From assembly GCA_018262975.1 (NCBI GenBank), contig JADFDG010000008.1:24986-88985 (forward strand): DNA of 64,000 nucleotides, given 5' to 3'. The translations under genes were made by a program, and so were the position numbers. The notes under the pieces were generated by a model. The model was not told the origin of the DNA. It did not search any database and was given only the letters and a program-made list of their open reading frames with translations. The stretch comes from Gammaproteobacteria bacterium. Lineage in GTDB: Bacteria; Pseudomonadota; Gammaproteobacteria; Pseudomonadales; JADFDG01. Shown one piece after another: positions 3,569-38,177 of the stretch. The first letter of the stretch is position 1, and each line of letters begins with the position of its first letter.

Positions 3569-4858
3569 GTGGACCTGCTGCTGCTGTTCCTGCTGATCGT
3601 GCTCAACGGCGTGTTTGCCATGAGCGAGATCGCCATCGTCTCCTCGCGCAAGGCGCGCCTGCAACGCATGGCCGACGAGGACCATCCTGGCGCGGAAGCC
3701 GCGCTGGCGCTGCAGGAAAGTCCCACCCGCTTCCTGTCCACCATCCAGGTCGGCATCACCACCATCGGCATCCTCGCCGGCACCATCGGCGACGACGCAC
3801 TGGTGCAGCCGCTGTCGGCCTGGCTGCTCACCGTGCCGTCACTGGCGCCCTGGCACGAGGGCATCGCCCTGACCGTGGTGGTAATGGGGCTGACCTACTT
3901 TTCCGTGGTGGTCGGCGAACTGGTGCCCAAGCGACTGGCGCTGCTGGCACCGGAACGGGTGGCCGGCATCGTCGCCGCGCCGATGAACGTGCTGGCACGC
4001 GCGGCCTCGCCGGTGGTGACGCTGCTGTCGGTGTCCGGCGACCTGCTGCTGCGCCTGCTGAACGCCCGCGCCAAGGACGAGCCGCCGGTCACCAACGAGG
4101 AGATCAAGGTGCTGATGGAACAGGGCGCCGAGGCCGGCGTGTTCCATGCCGCCGAACGCCAGCTGGTAGCCAACGTGCTGCACCTGGACGACCAGACGGT
4201 GCTGGCCATCATGACGCCCCGCCAGGACATCGACGCGCTGGACCTGTCCGAAGGCGAGGATGCGCTGCGCGCGGCTATCGTCACCAGCCAGCACAGCCGC
4301 TTCGTGGTGTACCGCGAAGATTTCAGCAACATCGCCGGCATCCTGCACGCCAGCGACCTGCTGCGCCGGCTGCTGTCGGGCGAATCACCCGCGATCGGCG
4401 AGGCGGTGCGCCCGGCGCACTACGTGCCGGACACCATCACGCTGTCGCAACTGCTGGAAAACATGCGCCGCGCGCGCACCACCATCGCGCTGGTGGTGGA
4501 CGAATACGGCGACCTGCTGGGCATGGTGACGCTCAAGGACGTGATCGATGCGATCGTCGGCAACCTCGCCTTCAACGAGGGCGGCAACGACAACGAAGTG
4601 ATCGCACGCGACGACGGCTCCTGGCTGGTGGACGGCTCGGTGAGCATCGAACGCCTCAAGCAGGTGCTGGAAACCTCGTCGCTGCCCGGCGAGGAAGACG
4701 GCTACTTCCACACCGCCGCCGGATTCGTGCTGCACATGCTGGGGCACATCCCCAAGCCGGCCGAACACTTCGTGGCCGACGGCTACCGCTTCGAGGTGGT
4801 GGACATGGACGGCCACCGCATCGACAAGCTGCTGATTGCGGCGGTCGACGAAGAGTGA
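3569..4858 (+). CDS. HlyC/CorC-family membrane protein (DUF21 - CBS pair - CorC_HlyC)
   Basis: N-terminal TM region LLLLFLLIVLNGVFAMSEIAIVSSR (DUF21), CBS region, and a C-terminal transporter-associated domain. GTG at 3569 chosen; the upstream part of the ORF overlaps the dxs end. Confidence 0.85.
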   Translation: MDLLLLFLLIVLNGVFAMSEIAIVSSRKARLQRMADEDHPGAEAALALQESPTRFLSTIQVGITTIGILAGTIGDDALVQPLSAWLLTVPSLAPWHEGIALTVVVMGLTYFSVVVGELVPKRLALLAPERVAGIVAAPMNVLARAASPVVTLLSVSGDLLLRLLNARAKDEPPVTNEEIKVLMEQGAEAGVFHAAERQLVANVLHLDDQTVLAIMTPRQDIDALDLSEGEDALRAAIVTSQHSRFVVYREDFSNIAGILHASDLLRRLLSGESPAIGEAVRPAHYVPDTITLSQLLENMRRARTTIALVVDEYGDLLGMVTLKDVIDAIVGNLAFNEGGNDNEVIARDDGSWLVDGSVSIERLKQVLETSSLPGEEDGYFHTAAGFVLHMLGHIPKPAEHFVADGYRFEVVDMDGHRIDKLLIAAVDEE

Positions 4859-4865
4859 CCGCCTT

Positions 4866-5465
4866 TCAGCGGATGAGGTGCCCGAGCTTGCCCTTCTTCA
4901 CCGCCAGGTAATGCTCGTTGTGGGGATTCATCCCCACCTCGTGGGCGATGCGCTCCACCACCGTGTAGCCGAGCACCTCGAGCGCCTTCACCTTGCGCGG
5001 GTTGTTGGTCATCAACCGCAGTTTTTTCACGCCGGCATGATCGAGCATCACCCGGCAGATGCCGTAATCGCGCAGGTCGGCGTCGAAGCCGAGGTGCACG
5101 TTGGCCTCGACGGTGTCCTTGCCCTCGTCCTGCAACTTGTAGGCGCGGATCTTGTTGGTCAGGCCGATGCCGCGGCCTTCCTGGCGCAGGTAGAGGATGA
5201 TGCCGCGGCCTTCCTTGCCGATGCGCTCCATGGCGGCTTCCAGTTGAGGGCCACAGTCGCAGCGCAGGCTGAACAGCGCGTCGCCGGTCAGGCACTCGGA
5301 GTGGATGCGCACCAGCACCGGCTCGCCGCCGGTGGCGGCGTCGGAGACGTCGCCGAGCGTGAGCATGACGTGTTCCTTGCCCGTGGCGTCTTCTTCGAAG
5401 CCATGGAGCTCGAAAACGCCGAACGGGGTCGGCAGGCGGGCGGTTTCAACGTAGCGAAGGGTCAC
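4866..5465 (-). CDS. ribA: GTP cyclohydrolase II (stand-alone, catalytic motifs intact)
   Basis: 199 aa. [23 protein letters not shown] carries the zinc cysteines; [14 protein letters not shown] follows. Confidence 0.93.
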
Positions 5466-16097: not shown

Positions 16098-16168
16098 GTA
16101 GCTAGGGGGCCATGCCCCCGATGGTGGCGTCGCGGGGCGAACCGTCGGGGGCATGGCCCCCTCCCTAC
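16098..16168. repeat. REP inverted doublet (16098-16121 plus-oriented, 16145-16168 minus-oriented), with a further degenerate copy near 16186-16212
   Basis: GTAGCTAGGGGGCCATGCCCCCGA ... TCGGGGGCATGGCCCCCTCCCTAC. Lies in the glyA-ettA divergent intergenic region. Confidence 0.85.
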
Positions 16169-16213
16169 AGGGAGCGGGTCCGGGCGCGGGGGCATAGGGG
16201 CCCCGCGACAGGG

Positions 16214-16219
16214 TAGAAT
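16214..16219 (+). promoter_or_regulatory. Candidate -10 box TAGAAT plus GC-rich discriminator (TAGAATGCGCCCC) for ettA
   Basis: 39 nt upstream of the ettA ATG. Confidence 0.45.
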
Positions 16220-16257
16220 GCGCCCCCTCACCCCCTCCCCGTCATACCGGTACCCCG

Positions 16258-17922
<1,665 letters not shown>

Positions 17923-31924: not shown

Positions 31925-32035
31925 GAGGGGGGACGTGGATGTTGACGCAAGGCAAGGCTCCAGCGGATTGCCACCCGCATGCCACCGGCACGCGCTAGGT
32001 TTGGGGACCATGCCATCCGCCGGAGGGATCCACCC

Positions 32036-33133
32036 ATGCCCGTCATGATGAAAGCCGCCGTGTTCGTCGCACCCGGACGCATCGAGCTCGCCGACAAGCC
32101 CATCCCGGACGTCGGCCCCAACGACGCCCTGGTGCGCATCACCACCACCACCATCTGCGGCACCGACGTCCACATCCTCAAGGGTGAGTATCCGGTGGCG
32201 CCCGGCCTGACGGTCGGCCACGAGCCGGTGGGGGTCATCGAGAAGCTCGGCAGCGCAGTGCAGGGCTACCGGGAAGGCCAGCGGGTGATCGCCGGCGCCA
32301 TCTGCCCGAACTTCAACAGCTACGCCGCCCAGGACGGCGTGCCCAGCCAGGACGGCAGCTACCTGGTGGCCAGCGGCCGCTGCGCCTGCCACGGCTACAA
32401 GGCCACCGCCGGCTGGCGCTTCGGCAACATCATCGACGGCACCCAGGCCGAGTACGTGCTGGTGCCGGACGCCCAGGCCAACCTCGCCCCCATCCCCGAC
32501 GGCCTTACCGACGAACAGGTGCTGATGTGCCCGGACATCATGTCCACCGGCTTCAAGGGCGCCGAGAACGCCAACATCCGCATCGGCGACACCGTGGTGG
32601 TATTCGCGCAGGGCCCCATCGGGCTGTGCGCCACCGCCGGGGCACGCCTGCTGGGCGCCACCACCGTGATCGGGGTGGACAGCAACGACCACCGGCTGGA
32701 TATCGCGAAGAAACTGGGCGCCGACGTCACCCTCAATTTCACCCGCTGCGACGTGGTGGACGAGGTGATGAAGCTGACCGGCGGGCGCGGCGCCGACGCG
32801 GCGATCGAGGCGCTGGGGCAGCAGGCCACCTTCGAGAACGCGCTGCGCGTGCTCAAGCCCGGCGGCACGCTGTCGAGCCTGGGGGTGTACTCCAGCGACC
32901 TGAAGATCCCGCTGGGCGCCTTCGCGGCCGGGCTGGGCGACCACCGCATCGTCACCGCGCTGTGCCCCGGCGGCAAGGAGCGCATGCGGCGGCTGATGAA
33001 CGTGGTGGCCGCCAACCGCCTGGACCTGGGCCTGATGGTGACGCACCACTACCGGCTGGACGACATCGTGGCCGCCTACGACCTGTTCTCGCACCAGCGC
33101 GACGGGGTGCTGAAGGTGGCGGTGAAGCCCTGA
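32036..33133 (+). CDS. Zinc-dependent NAD(P) alcohol dehydrogenase (MDR family)
   Basis: ICGTDVHILKGEYP...GHEPVGVIEKLG zinc motif and GxGxxG (VFAQGPIGL). Start at 32036 (MPVMMKAAVF). Confidence 0.85.
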   Translation: MPVMMKAAVFVAPGRIELADKPIPDVGPNDALVRITTTTICGTDVHILKGEYPVAPGLTVGHEPVGVIEKLGSAVQGYREGQRVIAGAICPNFNSYAAQDGVPSQDGSYLVASGRCACHGYKATAGWRFGNIIDGTQAEYVLVPDAQANLAPIPDGLTDEQVLMCPDIMSTGFKGAENANIRIGDTVVVFAQGPIGLCATAGARLLGATTVIGVDSNDHRLDIAKKLGADVTLNFTRCDVVDEVMKLTGGRGADAAIEALGQQATFENALRVLKPGGTLSSLGVYSSDLKIPLGAFAAGLGDHRIVTALCPGGKERMRRLMNVVAANRLDLGLMVTHHYRLDDIVAAYDLFSHQRDGVLKVAVKP

Positions 33134-33214: not shown

Positions 33215-33299
33215 TGGTGCCGAGGAGAGGACTTGAACCTCCACGACTTGCGTCACTAGTACCTGAAACTAGCGTGTCTACCAATTTCACCACCTCGGC
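33215..33299 (-). tRNA. tRNA-Leu (anticodon CAG), 85 nt with long variable arm and encoded CCA
   Basis: Reverse complement reads GCCGAGGTGGTGAAATTGGTAGACACGCTAGTTTCAGGTACTAGTGACGCAAGTCGTGGAGGTTCAAGTCCTCTCCTCGGCACCA. Acceptor stem GCCGAGG/CCTCGGC, anticodon loop TTCAGGT, T-loop GGTTCAAGTCC. Confidence 0.92.
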
Positions 33300-33352: not shown

Positions 33353-33419
33353 GTCGAGAGGGGGCCATGCCCCCGATCATGTGAAAGCAAAAGCGTCGGG
33401 GGCATGGCCCCCTCTCTAC
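33353..33419. repeat. REP inverted doublet (33353-33376 plus with a GTCG head, 33396-33419 minus)
   Basis: Lies between the tRNA-Leu promoter and the MCE gene. CTA at 33416-33418 is the MCE-gene stop codon. Confidence 0.88.
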
Positions 33420-34339
33420 GGGAGCGGCGCCGGGGGCTGGCCGCCCTTGAAGGGCCAGCGCTTGGCGGCGCCGTCCATGAGGGTACGGGCGTCGCGCACC
33501 GCGGCGTCGGTGTTGTCGAGCAGCGCCTCCACCTTCGGCGCGGTGCCGTCGATGGCGCGGGTGGCGGCCTCGGCGGTGGCCTTCGCGCTGGCGGTGGTCT
33601 CGTCGAGCTTCGCCATGGATTCGCCGGCCTTCGCCGACAGGTCCGTCACCTGCTTTTCCAGCGTCGCCAGCGCGCGGTCGGTGTTGTCCAGCGTGCGCTT
33701 CACGTCGTCGCGCGCCAGCGTGTCCACGTCGTCCACCAGCCGGTCGACCTTGCGGCGCGTTTCGCGCAGTTCACCGGCGAGCTTGCGCAGGTCGCCCATC
33801 GCCGCGCGAAAATCGCCCTGCGGATCATTGAGGTAGCCGAGCAGTTTCGTGGTGCCGTCGATCACCGGCAGCGTGCGGTTACGCAGGTCGGCGGCGATGT
33901 CGGCCAGCGCCGGCGTGGGTTCGAACTGCACCGACTCGCCGGACTGCAGCGACGGCAGCGACGCGTTGCCGCTTCGCATCGCCAGGTAGCTGTCGCCGAT
34001 AAGGCCCTCGCGCGCGATGGACACCACCGAGTCGGCCTTCACCCAGCGCATGTACTGCTCCTCGATGCGCAACTGGACGTCCACGCGCGCGGTGTCGTTG
34101 AGCGACACCGATTTCACTTCGCCGATCTTGAAGCCGGACAGTTTCACCGCCATGCCCGCACGCAGGTCGGTGCCGCTGGGCGCCTCGACGAGGATGTCGA
34201 CCTTGCGCGTGAAATAACCCTGCTGGGCGGCCAGCAGCACCAGCAGGCCAACGCTTGCCAGCAAGGCCAGCAGCGCGAAGGCGGCCACCTTGAGGTTGAG
34301 GCCGCGGAAGCGCGGATCGGTGTCGCGAAGCAGGCTCAC
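33416..34339 (-). CDS. MCE/MlaD-family protein with a long helical C-terminal extension
   Basis: N-terminal TM LKVAAFALLALLASVGLLVLLAA. MCE domain (AGMAVKLSGFKIGEVKSVSL...). GTG at 34339 overlaps the upstream stop (GTGA). The stop codon TAG lies inside a REP unit. Confidence 0.85.
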   Translation of the reverse strand: MSLLRDTDPRFRGLNLKVAAFALLALLASVGLLVLLAAQQGYFTRKVDILVEAPSGTDLRAGMAVKLSGFKIGEVKSVSLNDTARVDVQLRIEEQYMRWVKADSVVSIAREGLIGDSYLAMRSGNASLPSLQSGESVQFEPTPALADIAADLRNRTLPVIDGTTKLLGYLNDPQGDFRAAMGDLRKLAGELRETRRKVDRLVDDVDTLARDDVKRTLDNTDRALATLEKQVTDLSAKAGESMAKLDETTASAKATAEAATRAIDGTAPKVEALLDNTDAAVRDARTLMDGAAKRWPFKGGQPPAPLP

Positions 34340-34902
34340 GGCAGGACGACCTCGGTCTGTTGGAAACTGAGCGCAGCGAAACCGGCGGGCCCGCGCGCGT
34401 CGCTGGCGGCATCGATGACCAGCAGGGCGGCATCGGCGAGCACGTCGTCGATCAGCGCGTGCAACGGCGCGTCCACCGGTGGCAGCACCGCGCACTCCAG
34501 CAGCAGGAGTCTGGGCCGCAGCAACAACTGGCGCAACCAGCCGACCTGGCGGCGCTCGTCGTCCGCCAGCTGTGCCGGCGGGCTGGCGAGCAGGCGGGCG
34601 GTGCCGGTGGCGTCATGGCCCAGACGGGCGCACCAGCCGGCAATGGAAGTTTCCAGGCCCGGCACGGTCGCCGGCGCATGCCACTGGCGAGCCAGCACGA
34701 GGTTTTCCCACGCCGGCAGGTTCGACAGCAGGCCGCCGTCTTCGGGCAGCCAACCCACGGCGGCGTCACCGAGTTGCGCGCGCGCCGCGGCGAGCAAGGT
34801 GTCGATCACGCCGGCGTCCGCGTCGGTGCCGAGCACGTAGCGACCCGGGCCGGGAATTTCCAGGCGGTAGTTGCCGGTGTTGATGCGCAGCGGCCAGTTC
34901 AC
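34336..34902 (-). CDS. Degenerate ABC nucleotide-binding-domain-like protein (all catalytic motifs lost)
   Basis: 188 aa. Collinear remnants of an MlaF-like NBD: Walker A position GTDADAGV; Q-loop GWLPE; signature LADDE followed by RRQVGWLRQLLLRP; Walker B LLLLECA; H-loop region IDAASD. GTG at 34902 overlaps the MlaE-like stop (GTGA). Confidence 0.6.
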   Translation of the reverse strand: MNWPLRINTGNYRLEIPGPGRYVLGTDADAGVIDTLLAAARAQLGDAAVGWLPEDGGLLSNLPAWENLVLARQWHAPATVPGLETSIAGWCARLGHDATGTARLLASPPAQLADDERRQVGWLRQLLLRPRLLLLECAVLPPVDAPLHALIDDVLADAALLVIDAASDARGPAGFAALSFQQTEVVLP

Positions 34903-35612
34903 AGGGGCACCATCAGCAGATCGATCAGCAGCACGCAGGCCAGCCCGCGCACCACCGCGCGCGAAGCGGCGATCGGCACCTCGGTGTAGGAACCGCGCGC
35001 GGCCAGCCCGGTGTGGCAGGCCACCAGCGCGATGGCCGCGCCGAACAACAGGCTCTTGAGCATGCATTCGATGATCGCACCGGCCGCCAGCGTTTCGCCC
35101 ACCTGCAGCAGGGTGCCGAACGCATGCGACGGCGCGGCGAACAGGCTGCCGGTGAGCGCGGCGGTGATGGCGAAATAGATGGACAGCAACAGGCAACCGC
35201 TCACCATGCCGAACACGCGCGGCACCACCAGGTATTGCAGCGGCGGAATGCCCAGCCGCGCCAGCAGGCGCACTTCGCCGCTGGCCTGCAGGGTGGCCAG
35301 CTCGCTGGCCATCGCCGGCGCGCTGCGCGCGGCAACCAGGAAGGCGGTGAGCAGGGGCGCGATTTCGTCGAGGGTGATGCGCAGCAGCACGGCGATGGCT
35401 TCGCGCGGCGCCTGGCCGAAGTCGCGCAACTGCCCGACCAGAATGCCCGACACCGCGACCGCCACCAGCAACACCAGCGGCAACGACTGCAGGCCGGAGA
35501 AATAAACCTGCTTGAAGTACACGCGCCGCGCCGGCTCGCGCCGCCACAGGATGCCGGCGTGCGCGAGCGCCGCGACGGTGTCGCGCCAGCGGAAGTGCGG
35601 TGAGCGTTCCAT
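34899..35612 (-). CDS. MlaE-family ABC permease
   Basis: 237 aa. FKQVYFSGLQSLPLVLLVAV..., ELATLQASGEVRLLARLGIPPLQYLVVPRVFG and YTEVPIAASRAVV are typical of MlaE/YrbE (DUF140). Confidence 0.85.
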   Translation of the reverse strand: MERSPHFRWRDTVAALAHAGILWRREPARRVYFKQVYFSGLQSLPLVLLVAVAVSGILVGQLRDFGQAPREAIAVLLRITLDEIAPLLTAFLVAARSAPAMASELATLQASGEVRLLARLGIPPLQYLVVPRVFGMVSGCLLLSIYFAITAALTGSLFAAPSHAFGTLLQVGETLAAGAIIECMLKSLLFGAAIALVACHTGLAARGSYTEVPIAASRAVVRGLACVLLIDLLMVPL

Positions 35613-35638
35613 GCCCGCGCCGCTTCCGGGTCAGCGCG

Positions 35639-38177
<2,539 letters not shown>

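Follow-up and report, generated by a model that had tools for sequence, protein, structure and literature searches.

Can a lipid transporter of the Mla type be kept by selection when the ATPase subunit encoded in its own gene cluster has lost the elements needed to handle ATP? This question is raised by three minus-strand genes in a 64,000-nucleotide stretch of gammaproteobacterial DNA (contig JADFDG010000008.1 of assembly GCA_018262975.1, positions 24,986 to 88,985 of the forward strand; hereafter, the window). They encode an MlaE-type permease of the ATP-binding cassette (ABC) class, a 188-amino acid (aa) non-catalytic protein with the fold of an ABC nucleotide-binding domain (NBD), and an MCE protein. 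The name NBD* was coined here for the middle protein and its family. An earlier note on this DNA, made from the sequence alone, had proposed that the middle protein retains the fold while ATP binding and hydrolysis are very unlikely, and this proposal holds up in profile matches, in an AlphaFold2 model searched with Foldseek and in motif scoring. The trio seems to be an Mla/MCE-type transporter with a pseudo-ATPase subunit, in an arrangement present in hundreds of environmental lineages and, it seems, not described before. A literature search of open-access papers and bioRxiv found no described dead NBD in Mla or MCE systems, an absence that is not proof.

The direction and the energy need of Mla/MCE lipid transport have been disputed for years. 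Phospholipid moves through MlaFEDB in both directions in vitro when ATP is absent, and ATP has been proposed to impose the retrograde direction. A conserved lineage in which the motor is reduced to a scaffold would imply that the membrane and MCE parts are selectable without ATP hydrolysis by their own NBD. If true, it would be a natural experiment on what ATP contributes to Mla-type transport, direction as against passage. In addition, NBD* would be one of the rare bacterial pseudo-ATPases of the ABC class that are complete and stand alone.

Fold of NBD*

No Pfam entry matched the 188-aa protein even at E ≤ 1. Matches to NCBIfam were marginal and confined to the signature region of ABC ATPases, and the MlaF model (NF008809) was not matched. 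A word-indexed search returned 20 homologues of 180–191 aa at 45–89% identity, all of them unannotated or named 'hypothetical'. When the single sequence was searched against the PDB, the best match was the ModC ATPase (E 7e-4), aligned from the Q-loop strand through the signature to Walker B. A profile of the family matched 167 PDB sequences; all of the matches listed were ABC NBDs, with LolD first (2e-4).

A structure was then predicted with AlphaFold2 from the alignment of 20 sequences (predicted local distance difference test, pLDDT, 88.8; predicted template modelling score, pTM, 0.86). The model runs from three short strands through a loop, a long helix, the Q-loop strand, the helical subdomain and the signature helix to the Walker B strand, a further helix and the H-loop strand. 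Foldseek with this model gave 779 PDB matches at E ≤ 0.001, and all of the matches listed were ABC NBDs with a probability of 1.0. MceG and MlaF took ranks 1, 2, 4, 7, 8 and 9, these matches including mycobacterial MceG (8fed_G/H) and MlaF of Pseudomonas aeruginosa, Acinetobacter baumannii and Escherichia coli (including 7ch8_J). The predicted structure thus confirms that NBD* keeps the ABC NBD fold, with a RecA-like and a helical subdomain. Two parts are missing from it, the C-terminal extension and a strand pair of about 30 residues that would follow the Walker A helix and precede the Q-loop, which explains much of the shortfall of a 188-aa protein against the solved MlaF and MceG chains of about 260–300 aa.

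It is the gene context and the fold ranking that suggest a descent of NBD* from MlaF. Assignment to the MlaF lineage by sequence was tried and rejected, since the NCBIfam scores of the longer relatives spread over FtsE, LolD, MlaF, YbbA and others, far below the cut-offs.

Loss of the catalytic motifs

Motifs were scored in an alignment of 20 close members of the family, 148 wider members and 7 canonical NBDs, and the window protein was also compared with ModC and LolD. The motif readings given for the 188-aa protein in the earlier note were reproduced in all these comparisons. Taken as a candidate for a catalytically competent ABC ATPase, NBD* passes the fold test and fails every catalytic-motif test (Table 1).

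Table 1. Catalytic elements of ABC NBDs at the aligned positions of NBD*.
Element	Window protein	Close family (20 members)	Wider family (148 members)
Walker A	GTDADAG, shortened loop, no Lys or Ser/Thr	4-residue gap in 12/20; Gly-rich loop, Lys and Ser/Thr in 0/20	Lys or Arg at the lysine column in 68/148; no Gly-rich loop
Q-loop Gln	Glu	E12, A5, Q1, G1, S1	Lost (A44, G16, E14 and others)
Signature LSGGQ	LADDE	L-[D/A/L/S]-[E/D]-[D/E]-[E/Q], acidic	Leu kept; SGG positions unconserved
Walker B strand	LLLL (LLLLEC)	Hydrophobic strand kept	Hydrophobic strand kept
Walker B Asp	Glu	E8, R7, A3, Q2	D69, E51
Catalytic Glu	Cys	A, G, C, S or P in 20/20	S, A, G, P, R, N; no Glu among the residues listed
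D-loop	Lost	Lost	Lost
H-loop His	Ala	His in 2/20	Not conserved

Among 170 sequences examined from an exhaustive profile search (see below), the pattern G-x4-GK[ST] was present in one and an LSGGQ-like motif in four, and Walker A was found in none of 119 metagenomic NBD* open reading frames (ORFs). Pfam ABC_tran (PF00005) was matched at E ≤ 0.01 by 40 of 98 wider-family members. From the residues that occupy the nucleotide site, ATP binding and hydrolysis by NBD* appear very unlikely.

One longer sequence from the exhaustive search, P0109 (246 aa), has an intact Walker A (GGSGSGKT), Q-loop Gln and Walker B (IDE) together with a degenerate signature (LSQAQ). It is possibly an intermediate in the loss of catalysis, which may have been graded.

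Conservation and selection

The ratio of nonsynonymous to synonymous substitutions (dN/dS) was calculated by the Nei–Gojobori method against relatives from independent assemblies. It was 0.20–0.37 for NBD*, 0.11 for the permease (against a relative at 83% identity), 0.10 for the MCE gene and 0.28 for a 100-codon piece of the upstream neighbour purA. In the independent assemblies, which come from other sequencing runs, the NBD* ORF is 83% and 89% identical and shares the 'dead' residues, and the length of the protein and its degenerate motifs are kept at 45–55% identity. By the measure of codon substitution, NBD* is shown to be under purifying selection.

These results bear on the simplest explanation for the missing motifs, namely an artefact, such as a frameshift hiding a real MlaF, or a decaying pseudogene. 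The absence of a Pfam match speaks for it, and nothing more. The earlier note had named three ways in which its own claim could fail, and none of them was found: no Walker A occurs in any of the six frames of 33416–35612, profile searches and the structure model matched ABC NBDs, and the orthologues, which are under purifying selection, share the degenerate motifs and have no canonical ones. Since the same ORF is present in independent assemblies at 83–100% identity with a dN/dS of 0.2–0.37, the explanation was rejected. Intact orthologues in a conserved position at 33–55% identity also argue against it, and its probability is practically negligible.

Conservation is unevenly distributed along the protein. 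In the close family, the best conserved segment is that which opens the helical subdomain after the Q-loop (GGLLSNLPAWEN..QWHAP, mean 0.87), and the signature-equivalent helix reaches 0.75; the minima are 0.34, for the Walker-A-equivalent loop, and 0.47, for the D-loop equivalent. In ABC transporters, the region of the Q-loop and the helical subdomain touches the coupling helix of the permease. In MlaE, the coupling helix lies between transmembrane helices TM2 and TM3 and contacts MlaF (PMC7790496). Since conservation peaks in the core and on the permease-facing surface and is lowest at the ATP-site loops, selection appears to act on the former and not on the nucleotide site.

The same profile has to be weighed against a cryptic form of energy coupling, in which non-canonical binding of a nucleotide or ligand, or another energy source, would keep transport directional. 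The basic residues at the Walker-A lysine column (Table 1) and the retention of an acidic residue, Asp or Glu, at the Walker B Asp position by 120 of the 148 wider sequences are in its favor, as is P0109, whose intact Walker A and B beside a degenerate signature point to graded loss. However, the P-loop of the window subfamily is deleted and varies in length and sequence, the acidic signature would repel phosphate, and both the catalytic Glu and the H-loop His are gone. In addition, the ATP-site loops are the least conserved parts, the opposite of what is expected for a ligand site, and coupling of this kind is decidedly unlikely.

Distribution and gene neighborhood

As far as database sequences tell, the degenerate NBD is not peculiar to one genome: it belongs to a large family, nearly always with an MCE gene as a neighbor. 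The exhaustive profile search, performed on 1.84 billion cluster representatives, gave 510 family clusters (clusters at 50% identity) at E ≤ 1e-3 and 76 at E ≤ 1e-10, with proteins of about 160–250 aa and the hallmark GGL[ILV]SNLxxWEN. Metagenomic loci were collected with a degenerate DNA pattern for GGLxxNLxxWENx; 120 loci matched it, and an NBD* ORF was present in 119. The MCE gene is directly downstream of NBD* in 82 of the 86 loci with room for it, and of 137 NBD* loci, counted with corrected start positions, 89 have an MlaE-like gene immediately upstream. Many of the remaining loci have a second layout, NBD*-MCE-TPR-(x)-MlaE.

Two size classes of NBD* can be told apart. Forms of about 220 aa have the full length of an NBD with a mutated P-loop, and forms of about 185 aa, including that of the window, have the P-loop and the adjacent strand pair deleted. 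This poses an annotation problem: automatic annotation at JGI names the former 'phospholipid/cholesterol/gamma-HCH transport system ATP-binding protein', although they are without Walker A, while the latter are annotated as 'hypothetical'.

The surroundings of the trio are also kept. Relatives in metagenome-assembled genomes (MAGs) at about 50% identity maintain the order mutL-miaA-hfq-hflXKC-hisZ-purA-[MlaE, NBD*, MCE]-rnr-rlmB-rpsF, with Pfam Adenylsucc_synt in the same upstream position. The close form of NBD* was found in only six species representatives of the genome collection, all uncultured Pseudomonadota or Gammaproteobacteria, and the window purA clusters at ≥90% identity with that of two of these six species.

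A search for homologues of the MCE protein reached cultured bacteria. In Chitinimonas arctica (CP041730.1), the cassette encodes an MlaE of 236 aa, an NBD* of 183 aa, an MCE protein of 318 aa and a TPR-like protein of 266 aa, with 4-nt overlaps throughout, and lies just upstream of rpsB-tsf-pyrH-frr-uppS-cdsA-dxr. Its NBD* is 33% identical over residues 50–163 of the window protein, with GWLPGEGGLLANLRVWEN. Being cultured and having a complete genome, C. arctica offers a tractable test system.

The TPR protein (about 255–285 aa) recurs as a fourth gene after MCE in the wider family, including C. arctica, and is absent in the window lineage. Examples are at 4666–5430 in locus L010, 5207–6019 (minus strand) in L062, 5705–6559 in L112 and 6954–7754 in L138. 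It could be a periplasmic or outer-membrane partner. In L062 (2630–7531, minus strand), which has the second layout, gene x encodes a 596-aa protein with CHASE2 and adenylate/guanylate-cyclase domains.

In one MAG relative (L001, 11686–20561, and L002, 2549–11424), the MCE gene is directly followed by what is probably an integrative defence element, an island with helix-turn-helix (HTH), DUF6119, CTD7, MC3, LmuB_C, Rep_trans and AlpA genes. The island occupies the slot where the window carries a tRNA-Leu gene and one plus-strand ORF.

Permease and MCE partners

The order permease, NBD-like protein and MCE protein reported in the earlier note was reproduced by domain searches. The permease matched Pfam MlaE at 1e-37 over profile positions 2–209 of 212. 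Its best solved relatives are MlaE of P. aeruginosa, A. baumannii and E. coli (1e-13 to 1e-9) and mycobacterial YrbE1A, aligned near full length. It keeps the invariant block R-S-x2-A-x-A-x-E-L ... E ... Y-L-x2-P-R, which by position lies around the TM2–TM3 segment. Since it scored 99.5 bits against an NCBIfam MlaE equivalog cut-off of 212, the permease is classed on its sequence as a divergent MlaE paralogue.

The MCE protein matched Pfam MlaD/MCE at 1e-14 and NCBIfam Mtu_fam_mce with 71 bits. In its AlphaFold2 model, a transmembrane helix (14–39) is followed by a beta barrel (46–139, pLDDT of about 90), in which the invariant Gly, Ser and Phe positions are well conserved, and by helices at 145–170, 177–215 and 220–292. 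The best full-length Foldseek matches are Mce1 subunits, and MlaD matches the core only. A further match is chain I of PDB 13hr, a 312-aa 'Mce/MlaD domain-containing protein' present in 8 chains, which aligned with the window MCE protein from end to end (residues 19–291 against 11–289, E 2e-6).

The conservation of these partners is relevant to the possibility that the trio transports nothing. In such a static or regulatory assembly, the dead NBD would lock the permease, and the MCE hexamer would serve as a tether or spacer, as a lipid sensor or as a decoy titrating canonical Mla partners. Pseudo-enzymes are often scaffolds or regulators. The location in a housekeeping gene cluster, with probable co-transcription with purA, would suit this role, as would the TPR protein that is frequent as a fourth gene in relatives and is typical of protein–protein scaffolds. 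However, the MlaE core of the permease is strongly conserved (Pfam 1e-37, dN/dS 0.11), and so is the MCE domain with its invariant barrel residues, which suggests that a lipid path is still selected. Moreover, nothing links the system to signalling components. A purely static or regulatory role is unlikely.

Proposed function

About an even chance is given to the reading that the trio is an MlaE/MCE-type envelope lipid transporter in which NBD* is a scaffold that holds the permease nucleotide-free, making it an ATP-independent conduit. By analogy with MlaFEDB, two copies of NBD* would dock on the coupling helices of a dimeric MlaE-like permease, with the MCE protein as a hexamer above it, in a 2:2:6 arrangement. 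Because NBD* could not close around ATP, the permease would be fixed in the nucleotide-free state, which would be outward-open and continuous with the MCE pore as in MlaFEDB. The complex, which would be made constitutively with purA, would then be a passive, equilibrative conduit. It would connect the inner membrane with the helical tube that the MCE protein would form in the periplasm, and the substrate would be phospholipid or some other hydrophobic molecule. It would resemble in function the ATPase-less Pqi and Let systems, on an Mla chassis.

Several published observations provide the background to this proposal. In its nucleotide-free state, MlaFEDB is outward-open, and a hydrophobic path runs unbroken from it into MlaD (PMC7790496). 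Phospholipid exchange by MlaFEDB is spontaneous and needs no ATP, which serves to impose a direction (10.1101/2021.05.25.445566, 10.1101/2020.06.04.133611). The Pqi and Let MCE systems have no ATPase (PMC12436622).

Alternatively, a working ATPase encoded elsewhere, for example a canonical MlaF, could replace NBD* or pair with it as a live/dead heterodimer, in the manner of MceG. A precedent is mycobacterial MceG, which serves several Mce operons in trans and to which NBD* has its top structural match, and as a rule proteobacteria have mlaFEDCB. However, the operons that borrow MceG encode no NBD, whereas here NBD* is under selection, is translationally coupled to MCE and presumably occupies the coupling-helix sites. 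In a mixed dimer, both composite sites would be defective, one joining a live Walker A to an acidic dead signature and the other a dead Walker A to a live signature, while neither half of the known asymmetric ABC dimers lacks Walker A. Nor was a canonical ABC ATPase ORF found in 757 kb around 137 NBD* loci. A borrowed ATPase is unlikely, and it comes out as the weakest of the three readings proposed in the earlier note. In the window, the only canonical ABC ATPase found was an ABC-F-type ORF (16198–17919, plus strand) with tandem NBDs, two Walker A motifs and two signatures, flanked by pairs of repetitive extragenic palindromic (REP) units.

Some points weigh against the nucleotide-free conduit. 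The contact of NBD* with the permease and the 2:2:6 stoichiometry are inferred by analogy. The helical tail of the MCE protein was modelled at low confidence (pLDDT of about 50), as would be expected for a part ordered only in the hexamer. No outer-membrane partner is encoded at the locus. Because Lys or Arg is found at the Walker-A lysine column in 68 of the 148 wider sequences, some longer members of the family might bind nucleotide weakly, and a canonical MlaF may act in trans from elsewhere in the genome.

The proposal can be extended from the window to its relatives. Slightly less than an even chance is given to the broader claim that a large unnamed clade, of at least several hundred clusters and consisting mostly of uncultured Proteobacteria plus the cultured Chitinimonas, has permanently replaced the ATPase and operates as 'apo-locked', ATP-independent conduits.

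Comparison with known systems

The closest comparison is with the MlaFEDB/MlaEFD core known from E. coli, A. baumannii, P. aeruginosa and Veillonella parvula, which like the trio consists of an MlaE-family permease, an NBD-fold subunit and a membrane-anchored protein with a single MCE domain; the best solved relatives of all three trio proteins include Mla subunits. The trio differs in its NBD*, which is without ATP motifs and about 70–80 residues shorter than the solved MlaF chains, in its MCE protein, which at 307 aa is longer than MlaD (183 aa) and includes about 150 helical residues, and in a permease below the NCBIfam MlaE cut-offs. No MlaB, MlaC or MlaA gene was seen adjoining the trio, although no search was aimed at them in the window.

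Brucella abortus Mpc (mpcEFDA) shares with the trio the permease-NBD-MCE order, a compact operon, the absence of adjoining MlaB and MlaC genes and an elongated MCE protein, for which a role in bridging the envelope has been proposed (PMC12436622). Mpc has been described as a conserved ABC transporter and as a chimeric Mla-Pqi system (PMC12436622). However, it has an ATPase subunit, MpcF, and a terminal gene for an outer-membrane lipoprotein, mpcA, whereas in the trio the NBD is dead and no lipoprotein gene follows. The window trio has no fourth gene, and relatives often have a TPR gene instead of a lipoprotein gene.

Two features that the earlier note had taken as departures from the canonical system prove to be ordinary. 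The gene order is normal in the MlaEFD core and in Brucella mpcEFDA (PMC10665443, PMC12436622), and Veillonella has the E-F-D order with overlapping F and D codons, as in the trio, in a core inferred to be widespread (PMC10665443). It is correct that no MlaB or MlaC gene follows the MCE gene, the next gene being tRNA-Leu(CAG), but this is no anomaly, since it is normal for MlaEFD and Mpc (PMC10665443, PMC12436622), and MlaA, MlaB and MlaC are dispensable in MlaEFD-only lineages (PMC10665443). What sets the trio apart is its dead NBD; its gene order, its codon overlaps, the elongation of its MCE protein and the lack of MlaA, MlaB and MlaC genes beside it are all normal.

In the actinobacterial Mce1–4 systems, the likeness lies in the individual proteins: the trio MCE protein aligns with Mce1 subunits along its whole length, from the TM helix through the MCE domain into the long helical tail, and MceG is the top structural match of NBD*. 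Their composition is different, with two YrbE and six different MCE proteins and a live MceG encoded elsewhere, against one permease, one MCE protein and a dead NBD within the operon. E. coli PqiABC and LetAB, MCE envelope lipid conduits without an ATPase, are the nearest functional analogy to the proposed ATP-independent mode (PMC12436622). In these, PqiA and LetA are unrelated to MlaE, there are 3 or 7 MCE domains and no NBD-fold subunit is present; with its MlaE-type permease and single MCE domain, the trio does not belong among them.

Degenerate nucleotide sites kept for a structural or regulatory role are also known from asymmetric ABC transporters, such as CFTR (NBD1), Pdr5, TM287/288 and PatAB (PMC5626490, PMC8421411). 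Those sites still bind ATP, through a Walker A that is intact, and have a live site as partner. In contrast, NBD* is a whole, separately encoded NBD without Walker A, signature and catalytic residues, presumably present in two copies.

Locus layout and neighboring genes

The features of the locus are collected in Table 2. The chaining of the three genes by GTGA overlaps, the distance from purA and the position of the last codon within a REP unit were all found as the earlier note had given them.

Table 2. Coordinates of the trio and adjoining features in the window.
Feature	Position	Strand	Remarks
MlaE-type ABC permease	34899..35612	-	237 aa, ATG start
NBD* (188-aa non-catalytic protein with ABC NBD fold)	34336..34902	-	GTG start
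MCE protein	33416..34339	-	307 aa, GTG start; N-terminal membrane helix, one MCE domain, about 150 residues of long helices
GTGA overlap, permease stop/NBD* start	34899..34902	-	Read directly
GTGA overlap, NBD* stop/MCE start	34336..34339	-	Read directly
purA-permease spacer, 26 nt	35613..35638	-	purA stop codon 35639-35641, permease ATG 35612
purA, adenylosuccinate synthase	35639..36931	-	430 aa; ORF translation; exact-sequence cluster so named; upstream neighbor
Inverted REP pair	33353..33419		Cores 33360-33374 and 33398-33412
tRNA-Leu(CAG)	33215..33299	-	ARAGORN; downstream boundary

The two junctions within the trio differ in their conservation. The 4-nt overlap between NBD* and MCE, ATGA or GTGA, is kept in all eight loci examined, including C. 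arctica, whereas the permease-NBD* junction varies among relatives (-4, -16, -17, +29 and +40 nt). The last value is that of L014, the closest relative with a contig (83% identity), in which the GTGA overlap is replaced by a 40-nt spacer (1045–1084) of tandem junction copies, CCCCTGTGAGAAGCG, between the permease stop and the GTG of NBD*, with both ORFs intact.

Since no terminator-like site was found in the 26-nt gap between purA and the permease, co-transcription of the trio with purA is probable from the sequence of this short spacer. A similarly short spacer (15–30 nt) is present in L001, L012 and L139.

At the other end, the MCE stop codon TAG (33416–33418) is the 'cta' of the REP unit tail, and a second, inverted copy follows right after the gene. 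The pair is probably a 3' hairpin or terminator of the operon. The REP-like unit, tcGGGGGCATGGCCCCCtctctac, occurs at 20 sites in the window, where about 0.01 would be expected. These sites span 7110–56443, often as inverted pairs or triplets between genes, for example at 16105/16147, 17950/17989/18029, 28482/28513, 33360/33398, 38520/38554 and 40080/40118.

Downstream of MCE, no MlaB/MlaC-like or TPR gene was found before the tRNA-Leu gene. No second MlaE or MCE paralogue is present in the window, where MlaB, MlaC and MlaA were not searched for as such. Between the tRNA-Leu gene and rnr lies a 384-aa ORF (31979–33133, plus strand), which we take from its N-terminal sequence to resemble a zinc-type alcohol dehydrogenase; the relative L003 has no such ORF at this position, and there rnr comes directly after MCE.

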